Below, one piece after another: positions 16,227 through 62,719 of a stretch of DNA of 64,000 bases. Origin of the DNA: an uncultured bacterium (GTDB lineage Bacteria > Patescibacteriota > Minisyncoccia > UBA6257 > 2-01-FULL-56-20); assembly GCA_963844965.1 (NCBI GenBank), contig CAWJQC010000004.1:64001-128000 (forward strand), in the 5' to 3' direction. The notes under the pieces are model-generated. The model was not told the DNA's origin. It saw only the letters and a list, made by a program, of their open reading frames with translations, and made no database searches. A program made the position numbers and the translations under genes. Within the stretch, counting starts at the first letter, position 1. Each line of letters opens with the position of its first letter.

Positions 16227-16537
16227 TATTTTTTCCTATTGAGGGAATTCATCCGGATGTTCGTCCTCGTATTTTTCAAGAAGTCCGTTGTACAGATTTA
16301 TATCCCTTTCGAGTTTGGAGCAGGATTCAAGCTCCCAGTGCCCGATATCCCCTTGACGGGACGCCGCTGGCTCGCCACTTCCGCAAATTGGCTCTCTAAT
16401 CGCTTAACCAGGGCTTTCAGTTTTTCGTAGTCCTCGTGATTTTGAGGCGGATTTTTCAACCAGCTCCTGTTGTCAAAGTTAGTTTCTTTTTCCTCACCAA
16501 GCTAATTTTGGATTCACTGCGATTTTTTTCACCCATA

Positions 16538-17740
16538 TTATTTCAGTATCTTAGTCACCGCTCCTGCGCCGACCGTCTTGCCGCCTTCGCGGATGGCAAA
16601 ACGCTGTTTTTCTTCAAGCGCGACCGGGAAATGAGTTTCACGGTGAGTTTAACGGTGTCGCCCGGCATGACCATTTCCATGCCTGCCGGCAAGGGTCACT
16701 TCGCCCGTAACATCGGTCGTCCTGATATAGAACTGCGGCTTGTAGCCGTTGAAGAACGGCGAGTGGCGGCCGCCTTCCTCTTTTGAAAGCACGTAAACCT
16801 CGCGCTCGAATTCCGTGTGCGGCGTGACGCTGCCCGGCTTCGCGACAACCTGCCCGCGCTCCACGTCTTCTTTCTTCAGGCCGCGGAGCAGAACGCCGAC
16901 GTTGTCGCCCGCCATGCCTTCGTCCAAGAGTCTTATTGAACATTTCAATGCCCGTGACGACGGTCTTCTGCCGTCGGCCTGCAGGCCGACGATCTCCACT
17001 TCTTCGTTCACTTTCACCTTGCCGCGCTCCACGCGGCCGGTCACGACCGTGCCGCGTCCTTCAATCGAGAAGATGTCTTCGATCGGCATAAGGAACGGCT
17101 TGTCGAAGTCGCGGACCGGATCGGGAATGAATGTCATCCACCGCTTTGATAAGGTCCAAGATCGGTTTCGCGTCCGGGTCGTCGGCGATTTCGCGGCCAA
17201 CGCTTTCAAAGCCGAACCGCGGATGATCGGAGTCGTGTCGCCCGGGAATTCGTATTTCTTCAAAAGCTCGCGGACTTCGGACTCAACGAGATCAATGAGT
17301 TCCGGATCGTCCACCTGATCGCACTTATTAAGAAACACGACGATGGTCGGCACGCCGACCTGGCGGGCAAGCAAAATGTGCTCGCGCGTCTGCGGCATCG
17401 GGCCGTCGGTCGCGGCGACGACCAAAATCGCGCCGTCCATCTGCGCGGCGCCCGTGATCATGTTCTTGATATAGTCGGCGTGTCCCGGCGCGTCAATGTG
17501 CGCGTAGTGGCGCTTCTCGGATTCGTACTCCGAATGGTGCAGGGCGATCGTGATGCCGCGCGCCTTTTCCTCCGGAGCGTTGTCAATTTGGTCCACTCTC
17601 TCTTCTTTCTTCGTCAGACCCTTCAAATGCAAAACGTGCATAATCGCGGCGGTCAGGGTCGTCTTGCCGTGGTCAACGTGGCCGATCGTGCCGATGTTCA
17701 TGTGCGGCTTGGCCCGGTAGAATTTTTCTTTTTCAGCCAT
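16538..17740 (-). CDS. tuf: Elongation factor Tu, carrying about four single-base frameshifts
   Basis: N-terminus [26 protein letters not shown] all intact. The stretch [23 protein letters not shown] reads in another frame as [23 protein letters not shown]. The C-terminus ...[23 protein letters not shown] / [29 protein letters not shown] is recovered in alternate frames. Confidence 0.85.
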
Positions 17741-19044: not shown

Positions 19045-21149
19045 TTACCGTTTTTTGCCTTCGATAATCAACTGCGCAATGTTCTGCGGCACTGGCTCAT
19101 AATGGTCAAATTCCATCGTGAACGCTCCCCTGCCTTGCGTCATGGAACGCAACTCGGTCGCGTAGCCGAACATTTCCGCGAGCGGAACTTTGGCGTCAAT
19201 CACTTTCACGTTGGGCCGGTCGGAAATTTCCTCAATCCTGCCGCGCTTGGAGTTCAAGTTGCCGCTCACCTCGCCCAAAAATTCTATCGGGATGATAACC
19301 TGAAGCTTCATTATCGGCTCCAATATGACCGGCTTCGCGCGCTTCGCCGCTTCCTGCAGGGCGATGGAGCCAGCAATTTTGAAAGCCGCCTCCGACGAGT
19401 CAACTTCATGGAAAGAGCCGTCATAGAGCGAAACTTCAAGGTCGGTCATCGGGTAGTGGGCAACGACCCCCTTACTCAATGCTTCCACCACACCTTTTTC
19501 CACCGCCGGGATGAATTCGTTCGGAATGATCCCTCCCTGATATCGTCTATGAAAACAAATCCCTTGCCGCGCTCCAAGGACTTCACGCGCAGCCAGACAT
19601 GTCCGTATTGTCCGCGGCCGCCGGATTGCCTGATATATTTGCCTTCCGCCTCCGCTTCGCCCATAATCGTTTCTTTATAGGCAACCTGCGGCCGCCCCAC
19701 CGAACCCTCAACACCGAACTCCCGCTTCATCCTGTCAACAATAATTTCCAGGTGCAACTCGCCCATGCCAGAAATAATCGTCTCGCCAGTTTCCAGGTCG
19801 CCCGCCACGCGGAAAGTCGGGTCTTCTTCCGCCAAGCGGTGCAGGGCAATGCTCATTTTTTCCTGGTCGGCTTTCGTCTTCGGCTCAATGCGAATGCCGA
19901 TCACCGGCTCGGGGAATATGATCTTCTCAAGCACTATCGGCGCGTCGGGACTGCAAAGCGTGTCGCCGGTCGTCGTATTCTTCAAACCGACGATCGCCGC
20001 GATATCTCCGGCATGCACTTCCTCCATTTCTTCGCGGTGGTTGGCGTGCATCCGCACCACGCGGCCGACACGTTCCTGCTGGTCCTTCTTGGAATTCAAA
20101 ACGTACGTGCCGCGCTTCAAAACGCCGGAATAATTCCGGAAATAGGTTAAAGTGCCGACGTACGGGTCTGTCGCAACCTTGAAAGCCAGCGCCGAGAACG
20201 GCTCTTCGTCCTTGGGGTGCCGCACGATATCGGCGCCGCTCTTCGGGTCAATGCCCTTAACCGGAGGAAGGTCCGTCGGCGCGGGCAAATATTCCACAAC
20301 CGAGTCAAGCATAAATTGCACGCCTTTGTTTTTCAGGGCCGAACCGCAAAGCACCGGCACAATTTTGTTGGCAATAACGGCTTTGCGCAAAACGCGGCGC
20401 AAATCTTCAATGTCAAGCTCAGTACCATCCAAATACTTGGTCATCAAGGCATCGTCATTGTCCACAATGCGTTCCACAAGTTCATGCCGCGCCTTCTTCA
20501 CGTGCACTTTCATATTTTCCGGCATCGGAATTTCTGTAATCTTTTCGCCATGTTCACCCTCCGAGCCGTACGCCTTTTCGGTTAAGAGGTCTATCATTCC
20601 CACGAATTCACCCTCAAGGCCGATGTTCAACTGCAAAGGCAGTGCGTTCGGCGTGAGCCGTTCTTTGATTGACTGCAAACTTTTTTCAAAGCTCGCACCC
20701 AAGCGGTCAAGTTTGTTAATAAAGCAAATCCGCGGCACGTGGTACTCATCGGCATAGCGCCAGTTCGTTTCCGACTGCGGCTCAACACCTGCGACGCCAT
20801 CAAAGACGACAACCGCGCCGTCCAAAACGCGGAGCGAACGCTTCACCTCCACCGTAAAGTCAATGTGCCCCGGCGTGTCAATCAAATTTATCATATGCTC
20901 AAATTTTTTGTCGCCCTTGCGGTAAGTCGGAATCCAGAACGCCGTCGTTGCGGCGGAAGTAATCGTAATTCCCCTCTCACGTTCCTGCTCCATCCAATCC
21001 ATCACCGTGTCGCCCGTGTGCACCTCGCCGATTTTGTGACTGACGCCCGTATAAAAAAGCACCCGTTCGCTCACGGTGGTTTTGCCGGCATCTATATGGG
21101 CGATGATGCCGATGTTACGGACCTTCTCGACAGGATACATTCTAGGCAT
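19045..21149 (-). CDS. fusA: Elongation factor G, split by a 1-nt deletion in a G-run near 19531-19540
   Basis: ORF-track pieces 19476..21149 (AHIDAGKTT...[10 protein letters not shown]) and 19045..19503 ([18 protein letters not shown]...) are contiguous EF-G. The correct join is ...[20 protein letters not shown]... Confidence 0.9.
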
Positions 21150-23829: not shown

Positions 23830-23902
23830 GTCCCTGTAGCTCAACGGATAGAGCGTGTGGCTTCGAACCACAAGGTTGCAGGTTCAAATCCTGCCAGGGA
23901 CG
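23830..23902 (+). tRNA. tRNA-Arg (anticodon TCG)
   Basis: Hand-folded cloverleaf: acceptor GTCCCTG/CAGGGAC, D-arm GCTC-AACGGATA-GAGC, anticodon arm TGTGG-CTTCGAA-CCACA, T-arm GCAGG-TTCAAAT-CCTGC, discriminator G, no encoded CCA. It is flanked by the inverted repeat CCCACCTTTG / CAAAGGTGGG. Confidence 0.85.
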
Positions 23903-23924
23903 CAAAGGTGGGAGGGTGAAGATA

Positions 23925-24491: not shown

Positions 24492-25886
24492 CTATTTCTG
24501 CAAGCTCAGAATTTTATTCCTGAACGTCAACTTACTCTTGAAGCAAGATAGCAATTCGCGTTTCTCGACCGTGCTGCCCTTTTTGAGAAGATATTTTGCG
24601 TACGTTTTAAGGTCAATTTCTTTAGTGGCCGCTTTCGATCCTTCTCCCAAGACATCGTTCGCGAATTTGCGATATCGTTCCATCTCGTCTTCGAATTTCT
24701 TCTGCATCCCAATCTCACTGATATCCATCTCGTCAATGATAGCGAGAAGTTGAGCGATCAATTCCTCTTCGCGAATGTATCCGCACTTGCAATCCTTATC
24801 TTTCGAGCGTGAGCATCCATAGTACACGTACCGCGCCGTCGTTCCATCCTTGTGCGCCTTATATTTCTCGCACGCACTGATGCCCGATCCGCATAGGCCG
24901 CACGAGATCAGTTTCGTAAACGAAAATTCCTTTATCTCCGACCTGATGACAAAATCTCGGTGCAGCTGCTCCTGTACTTTATCGAACAGCTCCCGCGAAA
25001 TGATTGCTTCGTGCTTGCCGCTGTACCAGTTACCGCTCTTCAGTGGATACTCAAAGATGCCGCAGTAAAATGGATTTTTGAGGATGATATAAATATTGGA
25101 TAACGAAAGCACTTTCCCATTCTTTGTTCTGAATTTGATTTCCGACTTCAGCCAATGATAAAGCTTCCGGCCCGACCATTGTTCGTCGGCGACTTTCTGG
25201 AGCATTTGCTTGATGACGGGCGCTCGCAGGGGATCAATGATAACTTCACAAGGACGGTCGGTGCTCTTCTCGTTAAGATACCCTGTCGGTGCGATAGACG
25301 GACGCAAACCTTGTTCGCACCGCATCCGTAATCCGCGCTTCACGTTTTCCGATTTGTTATCATTCTCAAGTTTCGCTTGGCTGCACAAAATCATCAACAT
25401 GAATTTCTCGCTCGGCGAGTTCGTGAATTTCTGGCTGAAGGTTCTGATCTCGATAAGTAATTTTTGATCCATCAAGTCCACCAAGCCGCCAAGGTCGCCC
25501 GCGTTGCGGCTCAAGCGATCCGGCGCCCATGTAAGGATACCGTTGAATTCGCCGGAACGAATATCAATAAGCAACTCGTTAAAAATTTTTCGCTGGCCGA
25601 CAGCTTTTGCGGAATGGCTTTCCTTTCTAACTTCGGCGATCTCAAGGTTATCGCGCTCGGCGATTTTCAGCATCTCCTTTATCTGACTATCAATGGAAAG
25701 CACTTGCTGTTCCTCGCTCTCCGTACTTTTCCTCGCATAGAGGCAGTATTTTATTTTTATCGCTTCGGCCTTTGTCGCAGAAACGCCCGACTGATCCCAG
25801 CCCTTTGGTATATTTGTTATTTTCTCCATACCTAAGGGATGCCGCAACGGCGGAAGGAGTCCAGAGCATCCTTGTCGGTAACTCAA
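24492..25886 (-). mobile_element. Large serine recombinase (resolvase catalytic domain, recombinase domain, zinc ribbon)
   Basis: YCLYARKSTESEEQQVLSIDSQ catalytic-Ser motif, large-recombinase middle domain, C-terminal Cys cluster CGLCGSG...YGCSRSKDKDCKCGY. About 590 bp from tRNA-Arg. Confidence 0.8.
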
Positions 25887-31231: not shown

Positions 31232-33913
31232 ATGAGTGGGATAAAAATAAATCTTTCTCTCAGCGAAATCCCAGGCATCGGCCCGCGTTTTCTGGAACGG
31301 CTGGGAAAACTCGGCATAAAAACCGTCCGTGATCTCATTTATCATTTTCCGGCCCGCTACGAGGATTTCTCCCAGATATACAAAATTTCCGACGTTGAGC
31401 CGGGGGAACAGGTAACAATACGTGGCGTTGTTGAAGACACCAAACTGCGGCGGACTTGGAGAAAACACATGACAATCGCCGAAGCCCTGATCCGCGACGA
31501 TTCCGGAACGATACGCGCCATCTGGTTCAACCAACCATATGTTTTGAACACTCTGCGGGTCGGGCGCACGGCGAATTTCGCAGGCAAAATATCCATATCG
31601 GACGAGGACGAAATTTATTTGAGCCACCCGGCTTATGAAATCGTCGGCAGTCGGGAGTCGGGAACGGAGAAGCAAGAAACAAAACATACAGCGCGGCTCG
31701 TCCCCATTTATCCCGAAACGCGCGGCCTCACATCCAAGGGGTTGAGATATCTGATCCAGCCAATTCTGAAAAACAGCGAACAGCTGGAGGAATGGCTGCC
31801 GCCGGAAGTTCTGCGCGAAAATAATTTTCCCGAAATAAACCTTGCGCTCAGATCCATACACTTCCCCGAAAAAACCGAGGATGCTCTTGTCGCGAAAAAA
31901 CGCTTCACTTTTGAAAACCTGTTCCTGCTGCAACTCGCCAATCTTGAACAAAAATTGAAACTCGCGCGCGAAAAAGCGCCAGTGATCAAAACCGACATAG
32001 AACACCTGAAAAAAATGATCTCGGAACTGCCATACGAACTCACGTTTTCGCAAAAGAAATCATTGTGGGAAATCATCCAGGACCTCGCCAAAAAACAGCC
32101 GATGAACCGCCTGCTCCAGGGCGACGTGGGCTCCGGCAAGACGGTTGTCGCGGCGCTCGCCGCGGTAATTACCGCGGAAAACGGGCTGCAGACCGCGTTT
32201 ATGGCGCCAACCGAGGTTCTCGCGAGACAGCATTTTGAAACATTGAAAAAATTATTCGCCGGAATTCCCTCGATCCATCAACCCGTAGTTGGGCTTCTCA
32301 CGTCAAGCGAAGCAAAAATCCTCTACGCGACAGACCTTGAATCAAAAATCAAAAAACCGGAGTTGCAGGAAAAAATAAAAAACGGCGAGGTAAAAATAGC
32401 CATCGGCACGCACGCTTTGATACAAAAAGACGTGGCGTTCGGCAATCTTGCCTTTATCATCATTGACGAACAGCATAGATTCGGCGTCTCACAACGAGCT
32501 GCGCTCGTTCGCGGACAGACGCAGAATGATAATACGCGGACAGACGCTGAACAACTACTATACGAAAAAACGACGTTTGAGATAAGAAAAAGTCTGTTTG
32601 AGGTGAGAAAACAACTGGGCCTTGGTCATAAAGAAGTGGTGTATCAGAAAGCATTGGAGGAGGAGTTCAAGAAATCCGGTGTAATATTTGAGAAAGAAAA
32701 GAAAATTCCTGTCGTTTATAACAAGAAAAAGATTGGCGTTTATCAACCGGATTTTGTCATAGATAATGAAGTAATTTTGGAACTTAAGGCTCTTCCCTTT
32801 ATCGGCGGCATCGAAAAAAAACAGCTGTGGAATTATTTGAGGGGTTCGGATTACAAACTCGCGCTTATGGCAAACTTTGGACCGGAAAGATTATCCATAG
32901 AGCGGGTAGTATACGATATTGCGCGGAGTCGGCGGCTGTCAGCGTCCGGTCAGCAACTGTCCGCGCCTATCCCCCACCTCCTCTCAATGTCCGCCACGCC
33001 AATCCCACGCACGCTCATGCTCACCGTCTTCGGCGATTTGGATATATCGCTCATCACCGAACTTCCCGCCGGCAGAAAAAATATCGTAACAAAAATAATC
33101 CCCCCACGGGGCAGGAGCGAAGCCTATGAATTCATCCGCGGCGAAGTGAGGGCCAGCCGGCAGGTTTTTGTCATCTGCCCCCGCATTGACAAACCGCAGA
33201 CAGGCGCAGACCACACGCAGACAAACGCAGACAAGACACAGACAGACGCAGACAATTTTCAGCGGCTGTCTGCGTCAAGTCAGCGACTGTCCGCGTTAAG
33301 TCCACGTAAGTCCGCGTTAGTGTGGGAAGTAAGATCCGTGAAAGAAGAATTTGAAAAATTATCCAAGAAAATTTTTCCGGATTTGCGCGTCGCCATGCTC
33401 CACGGCCAGCTCAAGCCAAAAGAAAAAGCGGGTATCATGAAGGACTTCCGCAACTACAAAATAGATATTCTCGTTTCAACTTCCGTCGTGGAAGTTGGCG
33501 TGGACGTGCCGAACGCAACAATAATGATGATTGAAGGCGCCGATCGCTTCGGGCTGGCTCAGATCTACCAATTCCGCGGACGCGTGGGGCGCGGCGAACA
33601 CCAATCCTATTGCTTCCTGTTCACGGATTCGTCCGCCAAAACTACGCGCGAGCGGCTGCAGGCCGTCCTTGAAGCCAAGAACGGCTTTGAGCTCGCCGAG
33701 AAGGACCTGAAGATCCGCGGTCCCGGCGAATTCCTCGGCACGGCGCAGACCGGCTTTCCCGACACGGCGATGAGCGGCCTCATGAACCCGGAGCTCGTGA
33801 AAGCAAGCCGCGAAGCGGCGGCAAAAATCGTCCAAAAAGATCCGCTTTTCAAAAATTATCCGCTCCTGAAAACCAAATTAAACGAGTTCCGGAAGGAAAT
33901 CCACTTGGAGTAG
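31232..33913 (+). CDS. recG: ATP-dependent DNA helicase RecG carrying an inserted GxxExxY/PD-(D/E)XK nuclease-like domain (about 32500-32990) and a second short repeat-encoded insert (33180-33310)
   Basis: Wedge/OB N-terminus; helicase motifs GDVGSGKT, DEQHRFG, QxxGRxGR (YQFRGRVGRGEHQSY). Internal segment GHKEVVYQKALEEEF...YQPDFVIDNEVILELKA matches GxxExxY plus D-x(n)-ExK. Confidence 0.85.
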   Translation: MSGIKINLSLSEIPGIGPRFLERLGKLGIKTVRDLIYHFPARYEDFSQIYKISDVEPGEQVTIRGVVEDTKLRRTWRKHMTIAEALIRDDSGTIRAIWFNQPYVLNTLRVGRTANFAGKISISDEDEIYLSHPAYEIVGSRESGTEKQETKHTARLVPIYPETRGLTSKGLRYLIQPILKNSEQLEEWLPPEVLRENNFPEINLALRSIHFPEKTEDALVAKKRFTFENLFLLQLANLEQKLKLAREKAPVIKTDIEHLKKMISELPYELTFSQKKSLWEIIQDLAKKQPMNRLLQGDVGSGKTVVAALAAVITAENGLQTAFMAPTEVLARQHFETLKKLFAGIPSIHQPVVGLLTSSEAKILYATDLESKIKKPELQEKIKNGEVKIAIGTHALIQKDVAFGNLAFIIIDEQHRFGVSQRAALVRGQTQNDNTRTDAEQLLYEKTTFEIRKSLFEVRKQLGLGHKEVVYQKALEEEFKKSGVIFEKEKKIPVVYNKKKIGVYQPDFVIDNEVILELKALPFIGGIEKKQLWNYLRGSDYKLALMANFGPERLSIERVVYDIARSRRLSASGQQLSAPIPHLLSMSATPIPRTLMLTVFGDLDISLITELPAGRKNIVTKIIPPRGRSEAYEFIRGEVRASRQVFVICPRIDKPQTGADHTQTNADKTQTDADNFQRLSASSQRLSALSPRKSALVWEVRSVKEEFEKLSKKIFPDLRVAMLHGQLKPKEKAGIMKDFRNYKIDILVSTSVVEVGVDVPNATIMMIEGADRFGLAQIYQFRGRVGRGEHQSYCFLFTDSSAKTTRERLQAVLEAKNGFELAEKDLKIRGPGEFLGTAQTGFPDTAMSGLMNPELVKASREAAAKIVQKDPLFKNYPLLKTKLNEFRKEIHLE

Positions 33914-40554: not shown

Positions 40555-43500
40555 TCATTTCAGAAGAGCGTCAACTTTTTCTTGGAGCGCGGCGTTCTGC
40601 GCCTGAAGAGCGCTGATCTCTTGTTGCTGCTCCTTGATGGATTCTATCATCGGCGCGATAAGCCCAGTATAATCCAGACCAAGGGTTCCGCTCGCGTCAG
40701 TTTCCACCAACTGCGGGAAAACCGTCTGTACATTCTGCGCGGTTAAACCGAGCTGCTCTCCACTGCCCATCAGTTTTGTATCTTTCCATTCAAAGGAAAC
40801 CGGCGTCAGTAACTCAAGCTCCGCAAGCGAACCCGACAGTGGAACTATATTCTTCTTCAAACGCTCGTCGGAGCTATTTATCCACTGCCCAGCATTGTTT
40901 GTATACTCGCCGTGGGCTCCCTGAAAGTCATACGTACTGCCGGAACCATAGACGCCGATTGCAGCAGTTGAAAACACCCCATACCCTGCGGGATTACCGA
41001 AGTATCCAGCGGAACCGTTCGCGCCCGCGGTATCCGAATATCCTTCCACCCCAACCCCAGTACCAGCGTTGTAGCCATAGACGGCGGGAAGACCATTACC
41101 AGTACCGTAGCCATAGACCCCATACCCAGTCGCACCAGCAGTGCCATAGACACCATACATAGAGCCGGTGCCATAAATCCCTGCCCCAGCTTGCCCGGCG
41201 CCACCGACGCTTAATGTTGACGCCGGTGCCGTCGTCCCGATGCCGACGTTGCCGTTCGTGATGGAGAAATATGGACCACCCCCCATCCCAGTGCCAAGCG
41301 CCAAATTGAGGCCATAAGATTGTGACGTCAAATCAGCGTATGTAAATGCTCCGTTGCTGGTGGTGAACTTTATCCAATCTACGTTTGACCCGTTTGTTTT
41401 GTCTAGCCGTAAGGTAGACGTACTTCCACTCTGAATATCAAGTTTTGCGACCGGCGCCGTGTTCCCGATGCCGACGTTGCCGTTCGTGATGGAGAAATAT
41501 GGACCACCCCCCATCCCAGTGCCAAGCGCCAAATTGAGGCCATAAGATTGTGACGTCAAATCAGCGTATGTAAATGCTCCGTTGCTGGTGGTGAACTTTA
41601 TCCAATCTACGTTTGACCCGTTTGTATTGTCTAGCCGTAAGGTAGACGTACTTCCACTCTGAATATCAAGTTTTGCGACCGGCGCCGTGTTCCCGATGCC
41701 GACGTTGCCGTTGTTATTTATAAACAAGGCGGGTGACGCGCCGGATGAGTCAGAACCCTGAGTCAAAAAGGCCATTGGAGAACCGTTACTGCCGATCCGG
41801 GCCCAGTTCGCAACTGCTGCCGGTCCAAGCTGTAGCAAGGCATCGGTACCGTTAGATGTCAAGTCAAACTTGGCGAATTTTGACCCGTTCACGACATGCA
41901 ACGTCGTTGCCGGCGACGCCGTCCCGATGCCGACGTTGCCGGAACCTAAAATTGTCACGAGATCCGTTTTCGAAGAAGCGCCCGTTTTTTCACTAAACTG
42001 GAAAGCGGTGGTGGGATTGTTATAAACATTATAAAAATCAACTTCTGCATTTCCTCCCGTATAATTCCAACCGACGGCCAGACCACCAAGGCCATCACTC
42101 ACCGGTAAAGATTGCGTGTTATATGAAGTTTTCAGGAACCCACCCTCAACATCGAGCTTGTAACCTGGTGCCGCCGTCCCGATGCCGACCGAGCCCGTGA
42201 AATATCCGCCGCCGTAGACGGAAAGCGCCTGCGGACCTACGGCACTGCCCGAAGTGGCAACCGCCAACGAAGAGGAAACGACGACGCTGGCCGGGAAAAG
42301 ATAATTGCCCGTGCTGACAACGTTTGAACCGAAATACCCGGCCGCCACGTTGCTGGCGTTCACGGTGCCACCCGAAGAAGCGCAGTCGGAACCGGTGCCA
42401 GAAACAACGCCCGCAGCGCTTACGTGCAAACACTGGATAGAACCGCTGATTCCAGAAACAGTAAGGGTGTTGGCACTTGCGCCACTGCTGAAAGTTTGAA
42501 GCGCGGTCCAGGTGTTCGCATGTCCAAGATTCAATGCGGCGGACACGGCGCCCGCGGTTGGAGATATCGTTAGAGTTCCGACGCCGCTGTCGCTGACCGA
42601 GGTTACGCTGCCGCCTGCCGCAGACCAAGAAAGCGTGCCAGCGCCGTTGTTCGTGAGCACAGTACTTGCACCGCCTTGCGCGGCCGGCCAGGAATAAGTG
42701 ATACTGTTGATTTTCGCGATGTTGCCGTTATTGTCAACCTGGAATTGACTGCTCGCGCCGACGCTAAAAAGCGACGCTGGCCCCGTCGTCCCGATGCCGA
42801 CGTTGCCGCCCGCAGTTATCCTCATTCTCTCAGCAGCTCCAGCTGAAGTGTCAACCCTAAATATAAGACCATTCGTCGCAGCGCTCGCCTTGACATCTAT
42901 AAACCCTCCCCCAGAAGAATCACTACTGAAAAGTCTCATGCCGTTAACACCGACGCTCGTATCACCTCCAAAGAATAGGTTGCCGTTGACGTTGCCTGCT
43001 GCCATAGGCAAAAGCATATTTGACGTAAGCTGAAGCTGTTGAGTTGGGTTCGCCGTCCCGATGCCGACGTTGCCGCTGAAATACCCGCCGCCGTAGACGG
43101 AGAGGGCCTGCGGCAGATTGCTCGCGGTTGTCGTTGTGATTCCAAGACCGGAAGTGATAAACACGCTGTGGGGAAACCCGTAGGGAACGCCGGAATCGAG
43201 TTGGAGAGAGTTAAACACCCCGGGCGAGATGTTGCCGGCGCTTACGAGACCGCTCACGCTGCCATAAATGGACATGCCGCTGGCGAGATTCACACTGCCG
43301 GCATTAGTAAGATTTGAAGTGCCGATACCGACGGTGCCATCGTTGCGCACGACGAGAAGCGGAACAGCAGAGCCGGGCTGGACAACCTGCAGAGCGAAAT
43401 TTGAGCTGTCGGTTGACGAAGCCACAATCAGAAGCCTCACGTTGGCGGAGGGTGTTGACGTTCCAATGCCCAGATTGCCCGCGGCGTTAACGCTTATCGC

Positions 43501-43680
43501 TCCCGAACCGTAACCGGGAGTGGGAGGAGGAGAAGCAAACGCATAGTAGGTAGTAGGTAGTAGGTAGTAGGTAGTAGCGAGAATGACGAAAAACAAAACG
43601 CGCGGCGCAAAACTCGGACACGCACCGTAAAACTTGCGGCGGAGCTTTTGCTGTTTTTGGAACAAACCTGCGTCCATCAT
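40555..43680 (-). CDS. Giant Sec-secreted fibre-like surface protein 2 (1041 aa) with peptidase-S74-type C-terminal intramolecular chaperone domain
   Basis: Same signal peptide as protein 1; GNVGIGT repeats; in-frame tandem 237-bp (79-aa) duplication at about 41237-41710; C-terminus NSSDERLKKNIVPLSG...GLDYTGLIAPMIESIKEQQQEISALQAQNAALQEKV, the S74 autoproteolysis motif SDxRLK plus a coiled coil. Confidence 0.75.
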   Translation of the reverse strand: MMDAGLFQKQQKLRRKFYGACPSFAPRVLFFVILATTYYLLPTTYYAFASPPPTPGYGSGAISVNAAGNLGIGTSTPSANVRLLIVASSTDSSNFALQVVQPGSAVPLLVVRNDGTVGIGTSNLTNAGSVNLASGMSIYGSVSGLVSAGNISPGVFNSLQLDSGVPYGFPHSVFITSGLGITTTTASNLPQALSVYGGGYFSGNVGIGTANPTQQLQLTSNMLLPMAAGNVNGNLFFGGDTSVGVNGMRLFSSDSSGGGFIDVKASAATNGLIFRVDTSAGAAERMRITAGGNVGIGTTGPASLFSVGASSQFQVDNNGNIAKINSITYSWPAAQGGASTVLTNNGAGTLSWSAAGGSVTSVSDSGVGTLTISPTAGAVSAALNLGHANTWTALQTFSSGASANTLTVSGISGSIQCLHVSAAGVVSGTGSDCASSGGTVNASNVAAGYFGSNVVSTGNYLFPASVVVSSSLAVATSGSAVGPQALSVYGGGYFTGSVGIGTAAPGYKLDVEGGFLKTSYNTQSLPVSDGLGGLAVGWNYTGGNAEVDFYNVYNNPTTAFQFSEKTGASSKTDLVTILGSGNVGIGTASPATTLHVVNGSKFAKFDLTSNGTDALLQLGPAAVANWARIGSNGSPMAFLTQGSDSSGASPALFINNNGNVGIGNTAPVAKLDIQSGSTSTLRLDNTNGSNVDWIKFTTSNGAFTYADLTSQSYGLNLALGTGMGGGPYFSITNGNVGIGNTAPVAKLDIQSGSTSTLRLDKTNGSNVDWIKFTTSNGAFTYADLTSQSYGLNLALGTGMGGGPYFSITNGNVGIGTTAPASTLSVGGAGQAGAGIYGTGSMYGVYGTAGATGYGVYGYGTGNGLPAVYGYNAGTGVGVEGYSDTAGANGSAGYFGNPAGYGVFSTAAIGVYGSGSTYDFQGAHGEYTNNAGQWINSSDERLKKNIVPLSGSLAELELLTPVSFEWKDTKLMGSGEQLGLTAQNVQTVFPQLVETDASGTLGLDYTGLIAPMIESIKEQQQEISALQAQNAALQEKVDALLK

Positions 43681-54306: not shown

Positions 54307-57104
54307 ATGCCCGAAGAATTTCCTACGCGCTACGACATAAAGGAAGTTGAAACGAAAATCTACGACCTATGGGAAAAGTCTGGGTTTTTCAATCCCGATG
54401 TTTGCGTTGAAAAAGGCGCGACGAAACCGGACGCCGAACCTTTTTCCATCGTCCTGCCGCCGCCGAACGTAACCGGCACCTTGCACATCGGCCACGCCTT
54501 TGAGGACGCGATCCAAGACACCGTTGTCCGCTACGAGCGCATGCGCGGCAAGCGGACGCTCTGGGTTCCCGGGACCGACCACGCCGCCATCGCCACGCAG
54601 GCGAAAGTGGAGGAACTTCTGCGCAAGGAAGGGAAAACGAAATACGACCTCGGCCGGGAGGAATTCCTGCGGCGCGTGAACGAGTTCGCCAAAAATTCTC
54701 ATGACATCATAATCCGCCAGATAAAACGGCTCGGCGCTTCGCTTGATTGGGGCCGCGAGGCATATACGCTTGATGAAAAACGAAATCTCGCCGTCCGCAC
54801 CGCCTTTAAAAAAATGTACGACCTCGGCCTCATTTACCGCGGCGATCGTATCGTGAACTGGGACCCGAAGCTACAGACCACCGTCTCCGACGACGAGGTG
54901 GAATGGATAGACGAAACGACGCCTTTCTACTATCTGAAATATGGGCCGTTCGTCATCGGCACGGCAAGACCGGAAACGAAGTTTGGCGACAAATACGTCG
55001 TCATGCATCCGGACGACGAACGCTATAAAAAATATAAACACGGCGAAAAGATAGAACTTGAATGGATAAACGGGTCGGTCACGGCAACAATTATCAAGGA
55101 TAAGGTCATTGACGTGAATTTCGGCACGGGCGTGATGACAATCACACCATGGCACGACATGACGGACTTTGACATCGCGGAAAGGCATCGCCTGGATAGG
55201 GAGCAGATAATCGACCTGCGCGGCAAACTGCTGCCCATCGCCGGCGAATTCGCCGGAACGCCTATCGCCAAGGCCCGGCCGCTCATTATTGAAAAACTAA
55301 GAACAAAGGGTCTCGTGGAAAAGATTGACGAACATTACGCCCATCGCGTCGCCACGAACAGCCGCGGCGGCGGCCTCATCGAACCGCAGATCCTCAAACA
55401 ATGGTTCGTCAAGGTAAACTCCAAGTTCCAAATCCCAATTTCCAACCTAAAAGGGATAAAAAGCGGCCAAGAGGTGACGCTCAAGGAACTTATGAAAAAA
55501 GTCGTGGAGTCGGGGCAAATAAAAATCATACCCGGACAGTTTGAAAAAATTTACTATCATTGGATAGACAACCTGCGCGACTGGTGCATCTCGCGCCAGC
55601 TTTGGTTCGGGCACAGAATTCCGGTGTGGTATTGCCTCGCCTGCGGCGAGCCGCAAGTTGAACCGAAAATAAAATCGCGATGGTTCCTGGTGCGGCACGG
55701 AGAAACAGACTGGATCAAAGAGGGGCGGCACATGGGACATAAAGAGGTTCCCATGAATGAAACCGGCAAGCAGCAAGCGATGGTAGCCGGCGAACGGCTC
55801 GCAAACGAAAAAATTGATCTGATAATTTCTTCCACCACCATGCGCTGCAAAGAAACCGCCGAAATTATCGCGAAAAAACTGGGTGTCAAAATTATTTTTG
55901 ACGAACGTCTGCGCGAGCGCGGCAGTGGCGAATGGGAAGGACTGCTGCATGCGGAAATCAGGGAAAAATACAAACCTCTGGAGCAAAAATATGGACCGAG
56001 GAGTGGAACAAGCGCGCGCGCTATGAATTCAAACCGCCGGGAGGAGAAAATTGGCTGGAACTTGAAAAGCGCGTAATTCAATCGTTCAAAGAGCACAAAC
56101 TTCGATACGCCGACAAAAATATCGCGATTGTCACCCACGCCGGTCCGATCAGGATCCTGGAAAAAAATCTTAAAAACAAATCATTTGAAGAAGTGGTGGG
56201 ATTAATACCCGAGAATGCCGAGATTGCTAAGCTTTCAATCGCAACTGCTTCCTGTAAAAAATGTGGCAGTGATACTTACGAGCAGGATCCCGATACTCTG
56301 GATACCTGGTTCTCCTCCGCTATGTGGACGTTCTCAACTCTCGGCTGGCCTGAAAAAACCTCCGACCTCAGAACCTACCATCCAACCTCTTTGATGGCGC
56401 CGGGGTATGAAATCCTTTTCTTCTGGGTGGCGCGGATGATACTCATGAGCGGCTGTCTTTTGGGAGAAATCCCCTTCCGCACGGTTTATCTCCACGGCAT
56501 TGTGCGCGACAAGCAGGGCAAGAAATTCAGCAAATCCAGCGGTCACGCGCTTGACCCCCTGGAACTAGCCGACAAATACGGAGCGGACGCCCTGCGCATG
56601 GCTTTAATTGCCGGAGCGGCGCCGGGAAACGACGTGCAATTTGACGAGAATAGGGTCAAGGGCTACAGGAATTTTTCAACCAAGATATGGAACGTAGCGC
56701 GGTTTGTTTTACTAAACAAACCGCCGCAGACAGACGCTGACAAGACGCGGACAGCCGCGGACATTGCTGGCCGACCAGAGATAAAGGAGTTTGAGGCAAT
56801 TAAATCGGAAATAACGAAACATCTTGATGAATACGAACTGCATCTCGCAAGCGAAAAGATTTACCACTACTTCTGGCACACTTTCGCCGACAAAATAATT
56901 GAACAGGAAAAAGCCAACCTGCGGACAGCCGCCGACAAGACGCAGACAGACGCAGACATTGCGAGACGGGCAGAATCCTATGCCCTACTGGGATACATTC
57001 TCGTCGGTTCGCTTAAACTACTCCACCCTTTCATGCCGTTCGTAACAGAAGAGATTTATCAAAAATTTGAACTAAATAAGCTTCTCTTGACCGAAAAATG
57101 GTAA
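54307..57104 (+). CDS. valS: Valyl-tRNA synthetase with an inserted histidine-phosphatase (PGAM-like) domain; 1-nt deletion in an A6 run near 55987-55993 splits it into two ORF-track pieces
   Basis: PPPNVTGTLHIGHA (HIGH), GKKFSKSSGH (KMSKS), VLDTWFSS. Between WYCLACGE and CKKCGSD lies a ~190-aa block: FLVRHGETDW...SSTTMRCKETA...GSGEWEG...AIVTHAGPIRIL, the RHG histidine-phosphatase signature. Frame repair CAAAAATATGG to CAAAAAATATGG restores ...KPLEQKIWTEEW... Confidence 0.85.
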
Positions 57105-57619: not shown

Positions 57620-58297
57620 GTGAGTATTCTGACACTCATCCTCGCTCTTCTTCCCGGCTTCGCCTGGCTTCTTTTTTATCTGGAAGAAGACCTTCATCCG
57701 GAGCCGAAGCGGCTCATCGCCTACACATTTGTGATAGGAATGGCCTCGGCTTTTTTCGCGCTCGCCATAGAAATATTTTTCAAGTCTATTTTCAATAACG
57801 CGGGCGTCGCGGAACTTTCCCTGCTCCCGCTGCTCGTCTTCGCCTTTGTGGAAGAGATCATCAAATTCGGGGCAGCTTACCTGGCCGTTCACAAAAATCC
57901 TGCTTTTGACGAACCGGTGGACGCCATGATCTACTGCGTGGTCGCGGCCCTTGGATTCGCCACCGTGGAAAACATCGGTGCCTTGACCGGCGGTTATTCA
58001 GCGCAAACGGCGCTTTTAAGCCAGGTCTTCGCCGCGACCTCAACCCGATTCGTAGGCGCCACGCTTCTACATTCTCTCGCCTCGGCACTGGTCGGCTATT
58101 ATTGGGCGGTCGGCATCAGGGATATGCGGGTCAAAAAATATGTTCTATGGGGATTGCTCATCGCCACCGTCTTGCACGCCATTTTCAACTATCTTATAAT
58201 TATCTATGGAAACGTGGCCTACGTAGCTGTGTTTCTTTTAGTAATAGGTTTCTTTGTTCTCAGCGATTTTGAGAAATTAAAAAGAAGGTCGATATAA
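57620..58297 (+). CDS. PrsW-family intramembrane metalloprotease
   Basis: Conserved EExxK (VEEIIKFG), FATVEN and HAIFN motifs in TM helices. Confidence 0.65.
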   Translation: MSILTLILALLPGFAWLLFYLEEDLHPEPKRLIAYTFVIGMASAFFALAIEIFFKSIFNNAGVAELSLLPLLVFAFVEEIIKFGAAYLAVHKNPAFDEPVDAMIYCVVAALGFATVENIGALTGGYSAQTALLSQVFAATSTRFVGATLLHSLASALVGYYWAVGIRDMRVKKYVLWGLLIATVLHAIFNYLIIIYGNVAYVAVFLLVIGFFVLSDFEKLKRRSI

Positions 58298-58398: not shown

Positions 58399-58884
58399 AT
58401 GGACGACGAAAAGTTTTTTGAAGAATTAGCCAGCGGAAAATCCGCGGCCGACGAAGAATACAAGGTTGAACTCGCAAAGGCCGAATCCGTTCCCGCAAAA
58501 AAAATGCAAAAAGAACTAAAAGAGTCAAAGAACGAGGTGCCGGACAGCGAATCCGAGGGACAGCTCACAATTGACGTCTATCAAACACCGTCGGACATAG
58601 TGGTGGAGTCGGCGATAGCCGGAGTCAATCCCGACGACATAGACATAGACGTAACCAACGATTCCATCACCATAAAGGGCTCGCGTCATAGGGATAAAGA
58701 AGTTAAGGATGAAGATTATTTCTACCAAGAATGTTACTGGGGAAGATTTTCCCGCTCTGTGATACTGCCACAGGAGGTTGACCCTGAAAGCGCGGACGTA
58801 AAATTCAAAAACGGGATTCTCACGGTGCGCCTGCCGAAGCTGATCAAACAGAAATCCAAGAAACTAAAGGTCAAGGTGGAATAG
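58399..58884 (+). CDS. Small heat-shock protein (Hsp20/alpha-crystallin family)
   Basis: alpha-crystallin domain: LTIDVYQTPSDIVVESAIAGVNPDDIDIDVTNDSITIKGSR...GILTVRLPK. Confidence 0.75.
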   Translation: MDDEKFFEELASGKSAADEEYKVELAKAESVPAKKMQKELKESKNEVPDSESEGQLTIDVYQTPSDIVVESAIAGVNPDDIDIDVTNDSITIKGSRHRDKEVKDEDYFYQECYWGRFSRSVILPQEVDPESADVKFKNGILTVRLPKLIKQKSKKLKVKVE

Positions 58885-60014: not shown

Positions 60015-60085
60015 CGGCGGTCAAAAACGGAGTATCGTATAATGGTAGTGCCTGCCGGCAGGCAGGCACATGCATGGCCCAGCAC

Positions 60086-60154
60086 TAAAATTTTCGGGCT
60101 GTAGTATAGCGGCAGTACGCACCCTTGGGGTGGGTGTAGACCGGGTTCGACTCC
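60086..60154 (+). tRNA. tRNA-Pro (anticodon GGG)
   Basis: Acceptor GGGCTGT/GCAGCCC, anticodon arm CACCC-TTGGGGT-GGGTG, T-arm CCGGG-TTCGACT-CCCGG (one nucleotide short, possibly an indel), discriminator G. Its last two nucleotides overlap the start of a 159-bp inverted repeat. Confidence 0.7.
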
Positions 60155-60311
60155 CGGCAGCCCGACATAACGGAACTTGCATCAACTTTTTCAAAATCAA
60201 CGCGCTCGCTTCGCTCGCTGTCTTTATGCACGAGGGGCAAATGGAGAAGCAAATCCGTAACTACTTTCCATTCGTCTTTCCAATCCCAAAAAATTTCCCT
60301 GTCCCGCAGGC

Positions 60312-61686
60312 GGCGGTTCGTTCCGATTTTCCCCGCAAAGGATTTTATGGCGTCGAATTCTTCGGACGAAGCCAGTTTTGCCGCGTGAAACGCGGATATA
60401 ATCCATTCCCGCAATGGTTCGATCCAATAGTTTCCCCTCCGCCCGCAATCATCATTCTGCTTGGACAAGGAAACTTTAGTTTTGATAAGCTCGTCCTTTT
60501 TGGCAAGATAGATTTCTTTTTCAATTGAGCCGTCCAAAAAGGCGTTCACGAGCTTGTCTAATTTCTGCTCGGTTTCCTTGAGTTGGGTTTCGAGATTGCG
60601 GGCGGAATTCTCCGAAGATTGGATGCCTTCTTTTTCCCACGCTTCCACTTGAACCAGCATTTTCTCTTTCCAATCTTCGGGGATGGCGACCTCCGAGATT
60701 TTCTCTTTGAGCTGTTGCACGAGTAAATCTTCGCGCAGATAGCTTTGTGAACACGGGCCAAGCCGTTTCGTACAGCGATAATACTTGTAGAGGCCGCCGT
60801 TCCCTTTCGCGTATTGGGCGGTGATGGCCGCGCCGCACTCGCCGCAGGTGAGCAATCCGGTGAACGGGAAATAATGACGCTTCTTGGAGTGGCGCGGCTT
60901 GGCTTTGTTCCTCAAAACCTCCTGCACTTTCTTGAAGGTCGCCTCGGGAACTATCGGCAGGAAATTGCCGACATAGCTCTCGCCGTTGTGTTTTATCACT
61001 CCGAGATAGGCGGAGTTCGTGAGCATCCGTTGGAGCGTGGCCTTCGGCATGGGATTTCCCGTACCGCTCACGATGCCGAAAAACTGGAAGCGGGCGGCGA
61101 GCGTCTTTAGGGTGTGCCTCCCTTCGGCGTATTCCTCAAAAACTTTTCTGATGATTCTCGCCCGCACGGGGTCGGGTTCGATGTTCCGCGTCTTGGGATT
61201 GTTGAGGTAACCGAAGGGGGCTTTGGTCGGCCACTCGCCGCGCCGCAATTTCTGCCGGATGCCGCGCTTCACGTTCTCGGAAAGGTTATCGCTGTAATAC
61301 TTGGACTGGCCGAAGGCGACCTGCAACATGAAAAGTCCCTGCGGGGTCGGCTCAAACCAGAACGTCGGGAACTTCAGCGAGGCAATCTTCTGGGTATCGA
61401 TGAGGTAGATGATTTGGCCGCCGTCTATGGAGTTGCGAGCCAATCGGTCGGGATGCCACGCCAATATGCCGACGGGTTCTTTGCTCTCGTGAATTTTCTT
61501 GATAAGGTCGCCGAACACTTCCCTGCCCGGACTTTTCGCGCTCTTGCTCTCGATGAAGGTCTCGATAATCTTTATATGTTCCCGTTTAGCGAACTCGGCA
61601 AGCTCCGCGAGTTGGGCTTCAATGCTCATCACCTGCCGTTCCTCGTCCTCGGTGGACTTGCGGGCATAGAGGAAATATGGGGTCAT
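60312..61686 (-). CDS. Large serine recombinase (body; the C-terminus continues into the left IR, and the annotated tail beyond 60153 is read-through antisense to tRNA-Pro)
   Basis: YARKSTEDEERQVMSIEAQ catalytic motif, recombinase domain, zinc ribbon CGECGAAITAQY...YYRCTKR, coiled-coil C-terminus. Confidence 0.8.
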
Positions 61687-61963: not shown

Positions 61964-62719
61964 CTGGCCTCGTCCGAAAGTTTCGGATAGATAAAATCCG
62001 CAAGGGAAAAATCGGGACAAAGATTCTTTCTTGTCGCAATTCACTTGCGACGAACCGCCGCCTGCGGGACAGGGAAATTTTTTGGGATTGGAAAGACGAA
62101 TGGAAAGTAGTTACGGATTTGCTTCTCCATTTGCCCCTCGTGCATAAAGACAGCGAGCGAAGCGAGCGCGTTGATTTTGAAAAAGTTGATGCAAGTTCCG
62201 TTATGTCGCAGTTGCTGAACGCTGTACGAACCTATTTTATCGAAAATCCGAGGGATTAGCCACCGGATTTACCCCTTCATTCACCCCTTCATTCGGGTAT
62301 GCTCGGAATGAAGGGGTAGCAAGTCCTGATTGCCCTGAAAACGCTGGGCTTTTTGACTCTCGCCGGACAAAACCAGAAGTCCTACTTCACTCCGGTTTGC
62401 CTAGTCAATCACCCCGTCAATCACGATTGACTACCCTGACGGCCATTCCGCCCTTACGAGACCTCGCTTTTCTCAAAAATCCTGACCCCCGACAATACCC
62501 CTAAACGGGTCTGTGCTCAGCCCCTCAGCCGCTCACTGTTGTTCGGGCTTCGGGGCTTCGCGTATGGCGCGCCCAAATTCCTCCCCCAACCCCTCCTTTG
62601 GGGCGCGCCGAGGGCGGTTGCGGCAACCCTTGGAACAGGGTATGGTTGAGATATCCACGCATAGGCGATGAAGCTCGCCGCAACCGCCCTTAGGGGCTGA
62701 TAGCTTCTATCTCAAAAAG

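Follow-up and report, generated by a model that had tools for sequence, protein, structure and literature searches.

The gene considered here, valS, encodes a valyl-tRNA synthetase (ValRS) of an uncultured bacterium of the Patescibacteriota (Minisyncoccia), and lies in a stretch of 64,000 nucleotides (nt) that we call the window (assembly GCA_963844965.1, contig CAWJQC010000004.1, positions 64,001 to 128,000). A complete histidine-phosphatase domain is nested within the synthetase, between the two cysteine pairs of a zinc knuckle in connective polypeptide 3 (CP3). As assembled, the gene is not one continuous reading frame but two overlapping open reading frames (ORFs) on the forward strand, in different frames and of 589 and 390 amino acids (aa), respectively. 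The parts referred to below are placed as follows.

54307-57104, forward strand: valS, valine-tRNA ligase with nested phosphatase; as assembled, ORFs 54307-56076 and 55932-57104
55627-55647, forward strand: WYCLACG, first half of the CP3 zinc knuckle (Cys443, Cys446), aligned to WYCEDC of Thermus thermophilus
55684-56243, forward strand: His_Phos_1 domain, aa 460-646, from Pfam, PDB sequence matches, AlphaFold2 (AF2) and Foldseek
55985-55989, forward strand: run of five A's in GAGCAAAAATATGG, likeliest site of a 1-nt deletion, from three-frame translations and one-base repair
56253-56264, forward strand: CKKC, second half of the zinc knuckle (Cys650, Cys653), aligned to T. thermophilus Cys438/Cys441

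The 589-aa ORF terminates within the phosphatase domain, and the remainder of that domain is found with the C-terminal half of ValRS in the 390-aa ORF, so that the motif GEWEG stands upstream of the frame shift and THAGPIR downstream. In a three-frame translation of 55561-56340, ...WYCLACGEPQVEPKIKSRWFLVRHGETD...RERGSGEWEGLLHAEIREKYKPLEQ is found in the first frame, ahead of nonsense and a stop, and the +2-offset frame reads ...WTEEWNKRARYEFKPPGGENWLELEKRV...IAIVTHAGPIRILEKN...ASCKKCGSDTYEQDPDTLDTWFSS.... Such a two-frame pattern can be accounted for by a single missing base. Adding one base, which turns the five A's at 55985-55989 into six, restores a single ORF of 932 aa containing ...EKYKPLEQKIWTEEWNKRARYEFKPPGGENW..., and only with this addition is there one continuous ValRS frame; the repaired protein aligns to the structure of PhoE straight across the junction, although homology would place the break anywhere from about 55968 to 56037. 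The codons of Cys443 and Cys446 occupy 55633-55644 and those of the second pair (CKKCG; Cys650 and Cys653) 56253-56264, after which EQDPDTLDTWFSS marks the point where the catalytic domain of ValRS resumes. The insert between the pairs runs from about 55645 to 56252 and comprises some 200 aa (about 203 residues from pair to pair), in agreement with the original prediction, made from the nucleotide sequence alone, of a phosphatase at 55655-56245.

The host protein, once repaired, is a valyl-tRNA synthetase: its scores exceed the cut-offs of the NCBIfam valS equivalogs (NF004349, 844 bits against 704; TIGR00422, 793.9 against 612.1), the class I motifs HIGH (aa 60-63) and KFSKS (aa 740-744) are in place, and an anticodon-binding domain follows. 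Pfam recognises tRNA-synt_1 (3e-125), His_Phos_1 (1e-47) and Anticodon_1 (6.5e-20), the first and last of these flanking the phosphatase. Residues H60, G62, H63, K740, S742 and K743 are invariant across the family of insert-bearing ValRS described below.

When the protein is aligned to T. thermophilus ValRS (1GAX; E 2.9e-165), the match is interrupted precisely after WYCEDC (Cys417/Cys420) and before SCEACG (Cys438/Cys441), and the insert is therefore placed within the Cys4 knuckle of CP3, where the original prediction had put it. The same enzyme core is present in the Thermus enzyme (1GAX/1IVS), with the same knuckle just ahead of the second half of the Rossmann fold, but there the cysteine pairs are separated by 17 residues rather than by a whole enzyme domain. 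In plain ValRS from the candidate phyla radiation (CPR), 21-46 residues lie between the flanking motifs HRIPVW and DxxDTWFSS, compared with about 210 in the phosphatase family; the spacing of 10-15 residues first quoted as normal was therefore roughly right. The topology of CP3 is known to vary between species, and CP3 of T. thermophilus isoleucyl-tRNA synthetase (IleRS) also has a zinc motif (PMC7191050). The window ValRS differs from its Thermus counterpart in a second respect, since it ends at the equivalent of residue 705 and is without the C-terminal coiled-coil region of that 862-aa enzyme. Other CPR ValRS of 710-750 aa likewise end at this position without the coiled coil, which is kept (PF10458) in some Moraniibacteria ValRS of about 1060-1080 aa.

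The nested histidine-phosphatase domain and its family

The insert matches His_Phos_1 (PF00300) with 159.6 bits against a cut-off of 21.7 (E 1e-47), over profile positions 2-182 of 194 and aa 460-646 of the repaired protein. The hallmark motifs listed in the original prediction (RHGET, RC/KET, GEWEG and THAGPIR) are all present: RHGET supplies R463 and H464 (nt 55693-55698), MRCKETA supplies R513 (55843-55845), RERGSGEWEG supplies E537 (55915-55917) and THAG supplies H611 (56136-56138). When aligned to the motifs of PhoE, these five residues make the branch 1 catalytic core complete in the window copy. Among PDB sequences the insert is matched by PhoE (1EBB/1H2E, 1e-22) and PspA (4IJ5, 2e-20), with further matches down to 5e-15 and identities of 25-29%. 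An AF2 model of the insert alone has a mean predicted local distance difference test (pLDDT) of 94.4 and a predicted template modelling score (pTM) of 0.91; for the full-length protein the values are 89.6 and 0.86, and the sole weak stretch of the insert (aa 551-575, pLDDT 61-75) coincides with the repaired junction. In Foldseek, the best matches of the insert model are PspA (4IJ5), GpgP (4QIH/6S2Q) and PhoE (1H2E/1EBB), with template modelling (TM) scores of 0.76-0.85.

Membership of a named family is another matter. CobC (TIGR03162) is the best-scoring one, but both the excised insert (140.6 bits) and the whole protein (136.0) fall below its cut-off of 162.9. None of the cut-offs for cofactor-dependent phosphoglycerate mutase (dPGM) is reached (TIGR01258, 54.8 against 81.7; NF010713, 56.9 against 305; NF038349, 75.6 against 225), nor is that of the PspA equivalog NF045917 (98.2 bits against 350), although PspA 4IJ5 is the top structural match. 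We have accordingly rejected assignment of the insert to dPGM, CobC or PspA, all of which score under their curated cut-offs. Since no NCBIfam equivalog is reached and the dPGM models are far from it, the term 'PGAM-like' (for phosphoglycerate mutase) with which the domain was first described is apt for its fold and should not be read as a function. Judged on sequence and model, the domain looks like an ordinary phosphomonoesterase of the PhoE/PspA/CobC type, and the suggestion that it might edit or proofread a phosphorylated substrate, or have a moonlighting regulatory role, found no computed support. Pfam detects His_Phos_1 alone in the insert, with no intein, homing endonuclease or Hint domain, and the inserts have evolved along with ValRS in a single clade; an intein or other mobile insertion was rejected on these grounds. 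We found no second phosphatase gene within the window.

The domain is present in 67 of the 120 best ValRS matches, and 66 of these 67 proteins are uninterrupted, with lengths of 850-1084 aa. They come from Kaiser-, Colwell-, Lipton- and Moraniibacteria, Paceibacterota and Minisyncoccia, and the intact relatives with the nested architecture are 53-65% identical to the window protein. In an alignment of 62 sequences the mean column identity is only 49%, yet the zinc-knuckle cysteines (C443, C446, C650, C653) are invariant, as are R463, H464, G465, R513, E537, E581, R589 and H611; this is what selection for zinc binding and phosphatase catalysis together would be expected to produce. The inserts as a family are acidic (median isoelectric point (pI) 6.1, net charge -5), a composition that seems unlike that of an RNA-binding module. 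The nested domain defines a conserved family in the Patescibacteria/CPR, whose members are named in public records simply 'class I tRNA ligase family protein'. Full-text searches of the literature turned up no work describing a histidine-phosphatase or PGAM domain in either ValRS or IleRS, and none concerning domain insertions in CPR aminoacyl-tRNA synthetases.

The window copy and its frame break

The copy in the window departs from its family in several respects. Isoleucine at position 470 (nt 55714-55716), six residues past the nucleophilic histidine, replaces a phosphate-pocket asparagine that is 98% conserved, and Ala612 replaces the glycine that follows the second histidine in 94% of the family; both of the usual residues, conserved family-wide, are thus absent from this copy. 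About eight extra residues lie at the repaired junction, and with a pI of 8.5 the insert is the most basic of the family. It is 53% identical to the nearest other insert, compared with 74-87% identity between the ValRS core and those of relatives. Because the quality of the assembly is poor, we do not read these deviations as decay.

The frame break itself is very probably an error, with one nucleotide lost in an assembly of low accuracy, and not biology, because other translation genes in the window carry indels of the same sort and the 66 insert-bearing relatives are all uninterrupted, the ORF1 product of the window (P0127) being the sole interrupted protein among the 67. The gene for EF-G (fusA, 19045-21149, reverse strand) is split into ORFs at 19476-21149 (557 aa) and 19045-19503 (152 aa) by a 1-nt deletion near GATATCAGGGAGGGATC (about 19535), a non-slippery site in domain IV that leaves positions 1-56 of Pfam EFG_IV in one ORF and 66-121 in the other. 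The gene for EF-Tu (tuf, 16430-17740, reverse strand) leaves its frame near ACCCTTGCCGGC and re-enters it about 75 nt later at ATTTCCCGGTCG, through two compensating indels, one of them in a run of C's, and the called ORF ends with only 48 of the 106 positions of domain 3. In all, essential translation genes in the window show at least four indels in about 6 kb. A comparable case is provided by a relative whose contig name resembles those of long-read assemblies, and in which valS is in three pieces and tgt in two. Indels are frequent enough in this assembly that split genes there should not be read as biology. A frameshift inside the insert had been named beforehand as a finding that would speak against an in-frame fusion; one is indeed there, although the original prediction overlooked it, and we judge it an artefact and no refutation, with the fusion in cis borne out by the 66 uninterrupted relatives and the window alone showing a broken frame.

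Two biological accounts of the break have nevertheless to be weighed. One holds that the frameshift is real in this lineage, either in a decaying insert whose ValRS reassembles from two pieces or in a valS pseudogene. The break is certainly present in the deposited sequence, the exact 589-aa product of ORF1 being found in NCBI/ENA on a 216-kb contig; the window copy has N470I, G612A and the additional 8-aa loop at the break, and its nearest relative by ValRS core (P0121, 87% identical) holds a different domain at the site. However, EF-Tu (with two indels) and EF-G (with one) are broken in the same window and cannot all be pseudogenes, the 390 codons downstream of the break are open and keep every conserved ValRS residue and motif, and a split at this point would divide the phosphatase fold itself, all of which makes a real frameshift improbable. 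The other account invokes programmed -1 ribosomal frameshifting, or transcriptional slippage, at the A run, by which the ratio of truncated to full-length ValRS might be tuned. In its favour, the shift is indeed -1 and falls on CAA AAA T, a sequence that would allow tRNA-Lys to pair again in the -1 frame. A canonical X XXY YYZ heptamer is lacking, however, and a run of five A's is too short to slip efficiently; all 66 relatives are encoded without any frameshift, and the comparable breaks in tuf and fusA lie at sites that are not slippery. We have rejected this account, which we consider extremely improbable. A recurrent, genuine split of valS within the insert was also considered, prompted by the many fragments of 380-520 aa starting inside the domain that were returned by the first homologue search, and it too was rejected. 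That search apparently lists matches only up to about 1.75 times the query length, and so favoured fragments, which were discounted; the two that we checked proved to be a contig end and a product of an error-ridden assembly.

Insertion sites, repeated capture and other features of the window

Two positions in ValRS have received additional domains, the zinc knuckle (site A) and a second site after TLGWP (site B). When 232 His_Phos domains were placed in a rough neighbour-joining tree, the 64 site-A inserts of ValRS all grouped in a single clade of 75 tips, the rest of which consists of additional ValRS sequences and of four short proteins with both cysteine pairs retained (P0258, P0242, P0257 and P0243). 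A check of P0258 and P0242 showed each to be a genuinely free-standing protein in an unrelated gene neighbourhood; close relatives of the domain do exist on their own. Free-standing phosphatases of 214-222 aa with YYCMGCG ... CKTCGGDLYE, nested in the ValRS-insert clade, are seen at loci L081 (574-1218) and L082 (5001-5669). Phosphatases that stand alone and still carry the cysteine pairs look like escaped copies of the nested module.

The content of site A is labile, and the site permissive to unrelated domains. P0121, the nearest relative of the window protein by ValRS core (87% identity over 684 core columns), has an unrelated domain of 150 aa (110-150 aa across the relatives that have it) in the same zinc knuckle, as do P0134 and P0138; P0169 has that domain and the phosphatase in tandem at site A, and P0172 has a possibly related domain at site B. 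The P0121-type domain has no significant match in Pfam or in a profile search of PDB sequences. By eye it resembles a small beta-barrel of PUA/ASCH-like type, a resemblance not confirmed by either of these searches. His_Phos_1 domains are found in further settings. P0029 has one at site B, and the knuckle-less ValRS lineage of P0009/P0246 has up to four tandem copies, the full four in P0246; neither is closest to the site-A clade. IleRS-type proteins with a DUF5915 C-terminus (P0245, P0249, P0256, P0260 and P0272), among them P0249 of Candidatus Peribacteria (MBT4020988.1), have two tandem copies, which lie outside that clade. Class Ia synthetases therefore appear to have gained a phosphatase of this kind at least three or four times.

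The expectation that insertion domains in this genome would prove diverse is upheld, both by the different domain in the knuckle of the closest ValRS relatives and by RecG (31232-33913, forward strand, 893 aa), which carries a PD-(D/E)XK nuclease (PDDEXK_3, aa 447-558) between its DEAD and Helicase_C lobes. On the 3' side of valS are a PrsW-family membrane protease (57620-58297, forward strand; Pfam match) and, at 58399-58884 on the same strand, what is likely an HSP20-type small heat-shock protein, to judge from its position and sequence resemblance. The order valS, PrsW, HSP20 recurs in relatives L085 and L086, although in L086 a single additional gene separates valS from PrsW. Elsewhere in the window are two large serine recombinases. 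The first (60085-61686, reverse strand) is flanked by a perfect 159-nt inverted repeat (60163-60321 and 62050-62208) and its 3' end overlaps a tRNA-Pro gene (60095-60166, forward strand), an arrangement that may reflect an invertible or integrative element or else an assembly artefact; the second (24492-25886, reverse strand) adjoins a tRNA-Arg gene (23830-23903). Finally, a protein of 1041 aa (40555-43680, reverse strand) has as its only Pfam match a C-terminal Peptidase_S74 domain (endosialidase chaperone), as in phage tail fibres and spikes, and may be prophage or surface-fibre material.

A function for the nested phosphatase and its analogues

In proposing what the nested domain does, we favour a bifunctional ValRS that carries an autonomous phosphomonoesterase acting on a small metabolite, with ValRS as the scaffold and the frame break as an assembly error, a combined reading to which we would give about an even chance. 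The protein is an otherwise normal class Ia ValRS, with HIGH, KFSKS, the CP1 editing region and the anticodon-binding domain, and a whole histidine-phosphatase domain is accommodated in its peripheral CP3 knuckle. The base of the insert would still be clamped by the four cysteines, so that the N- and C-termini of the domain would be adjacent and the domain would stand out from the synthetase as a bead carried on a loop. ValRS would charge tRNA-Val as usual; the insert would act through the usual phospho-histidine intermediate (at H464) on a small phosphorylated metabolite, and the synthetase would serve the phosphatase merely as scaffold and expression vehicle in a reduced genome. We prefer an autonomous enzyme because metabolite phosphatases are the nearest structures, the inserts are acidic as a family, free-standing derivatives occur, and the insertion site also takes unrelated domains.

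Several observations sit uneasily with this proposal. Class Ia synthetases have captured His_Phos_1 separately (at site B of P0029, in the P0009/P0246 arrays and in the tandem pairs of IleRS), and such recurrence hints at functional coupling and is hard to square with a purely passive scaffold. In the window copy, N470I and G612A may lower activity, unless they too are assembly errors. The insert is, moreover, tethered within about 10 residues of the linker DWxISRQxWxG, which in yeast IleRS lines the pocket for the CCA end of tRNA (PMC7955072).

The recurrence and the tether lend some substance to a rival, which we consider unlikely but not negligible, in which the phosphatase is coupled to tRNA and frees the 3'-CCA of tRNA-Val from a phosphate or pyrophosphate that blocks it (or removes another phospho-lesion of tRNA), so that repair and charging take place on one enzyme. 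Capture of His_Phos_1 has been independent and repeated in ValRS and IleRS, at two ValRS sites and in tandem arrays, and the RNase H/acid phosphatase NF005567 offers a precedent in which an enzyme of nucleic acids is joined to a CobC-like phosphatase. Set against this are the acidic character of the family, the existence of derivatives away from any synthetase and the metabolite phosphatases among the nearest structures; we also know of no histidine phosphatase that acts on tRNA ends. The anchors of the insert are nonetheless suggestively placed, at the CP2-CP3 linker (which in IleRS lines the CCA pocket; PMC7955072) and the DTWFSS helix, and suitable lesions exist, since toxSAS toxins pyrophosphorylate tRNA CCA ends in a tRNA-specific manner, and this blocks aminoacylation (PMC11559606; bioRxiv 10.1101/2021.04.30.441581). 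A more specific version, which could be read from the repeated, independent capture of such phosphatases in ValRS (at two sites) and IleRS, as pairs or arrays of up to four, is that the domain heals the 3' end of its own synthetase's tRNA (the CCA of tRNA-Val or tRNA-Ile), for instance after toxSAS-like attack, and hands it to the aminoacylation site; we hold this to be somewhat less likely again. A further possibility is a protein phosphatase of the SixA/PGAM5/Sts-1 kind that removes inhibitory phosphorylation, such as that made by a HipA- or Doc-type kinase toxin, from the synthetase or a translation factor. The histidine phosphatase superfamily does include protein phosphatases, kinase toxins that target aminoacyl-tRNA synthetases exist (HipA acts on GltX), SixA is a weak NCBIfam match of the insert, and recurrent capture by synthetases would suit such a role. 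However, the best matches in sequence and fold are metabolite phosphatases and not SixA or PGAM5, and no kinase is seen beside valS in the window or in relatives, which leaves this explanation rather improbable.

Aminoacyl-tRNA synthetases are highly conserved, and in bacteria extra catalytic domains in them are rare and usually linked to editing. Here a complete and apparently active phosphatase sits inside the catalytic domain of an essential synthetase, kept across many lineages of Patescibacteria and recurring in IleRS. Were it coupled to tRNA or aminoacylation, it would add a new level of quality control to translation, or of defence, in these organisms of minimal genome, and end-healing, if true, would be a new activity for the histidine-phosphatase superfamily and for aminoacyl-tRNA synthetases alike. 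If, as the preferred autonomous reading has it, the two are uncoupled, they still show cleanly how one domain can be nested by nature in the CP3 knuckle, whose permissiveness might be exploited in synthetase engineering.

The components of this arrangement have analogues elsewhere. PhoE (1EBB/1H2E), PspA (4IJ5) and GpgP (4QIH) have the same fold and the same catalytic residues as the window insert; phosphatases of their type are dimeric, and they are free-standing enzymes with known metabolite substrates, while the window domain is nested in a synthetase and framed by a zinc knuckle. In the RNase H/acid phosphatase (NF005567; Rv2228c/RnhC type) a CobC-like phosphatase is likewise carried by a nucleic-acid enzyme, and there, as here, the fusion has no established reason; however, that fusion is end to end and with another partner enzyme, and although the model is the second-best NCBIfam match of the insert, its score of 109.6 bits is far under the cut-off of 326. 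IleRS with an N-acetyltransferase (NF040702, ileS_w_GNAT) is also a class Ia synthetase with an extra catalytic domain, curated as a distinct type, but cargo and synthetase both differ and the match here is to the shared synthetase core only. A parallel is also offered by the IleRS-type proteins of the CPR, class Ia synthetases that likewise enclose a phosphatase of this kind, in some at the same point of tRNA-synt_1 (about 260-288 of 414) and in some ahead of the anticodon-binding domain; they differ in the synthetase itself, in the DUF5915 C-terminus, in having tandem copies and in phosphatases that fall outside the ValRS-insert clade. A synthetase with an added catalytic domain is of a known kind; here such a domain is nested in CP3, in an architecture already present in the databases under generic names.

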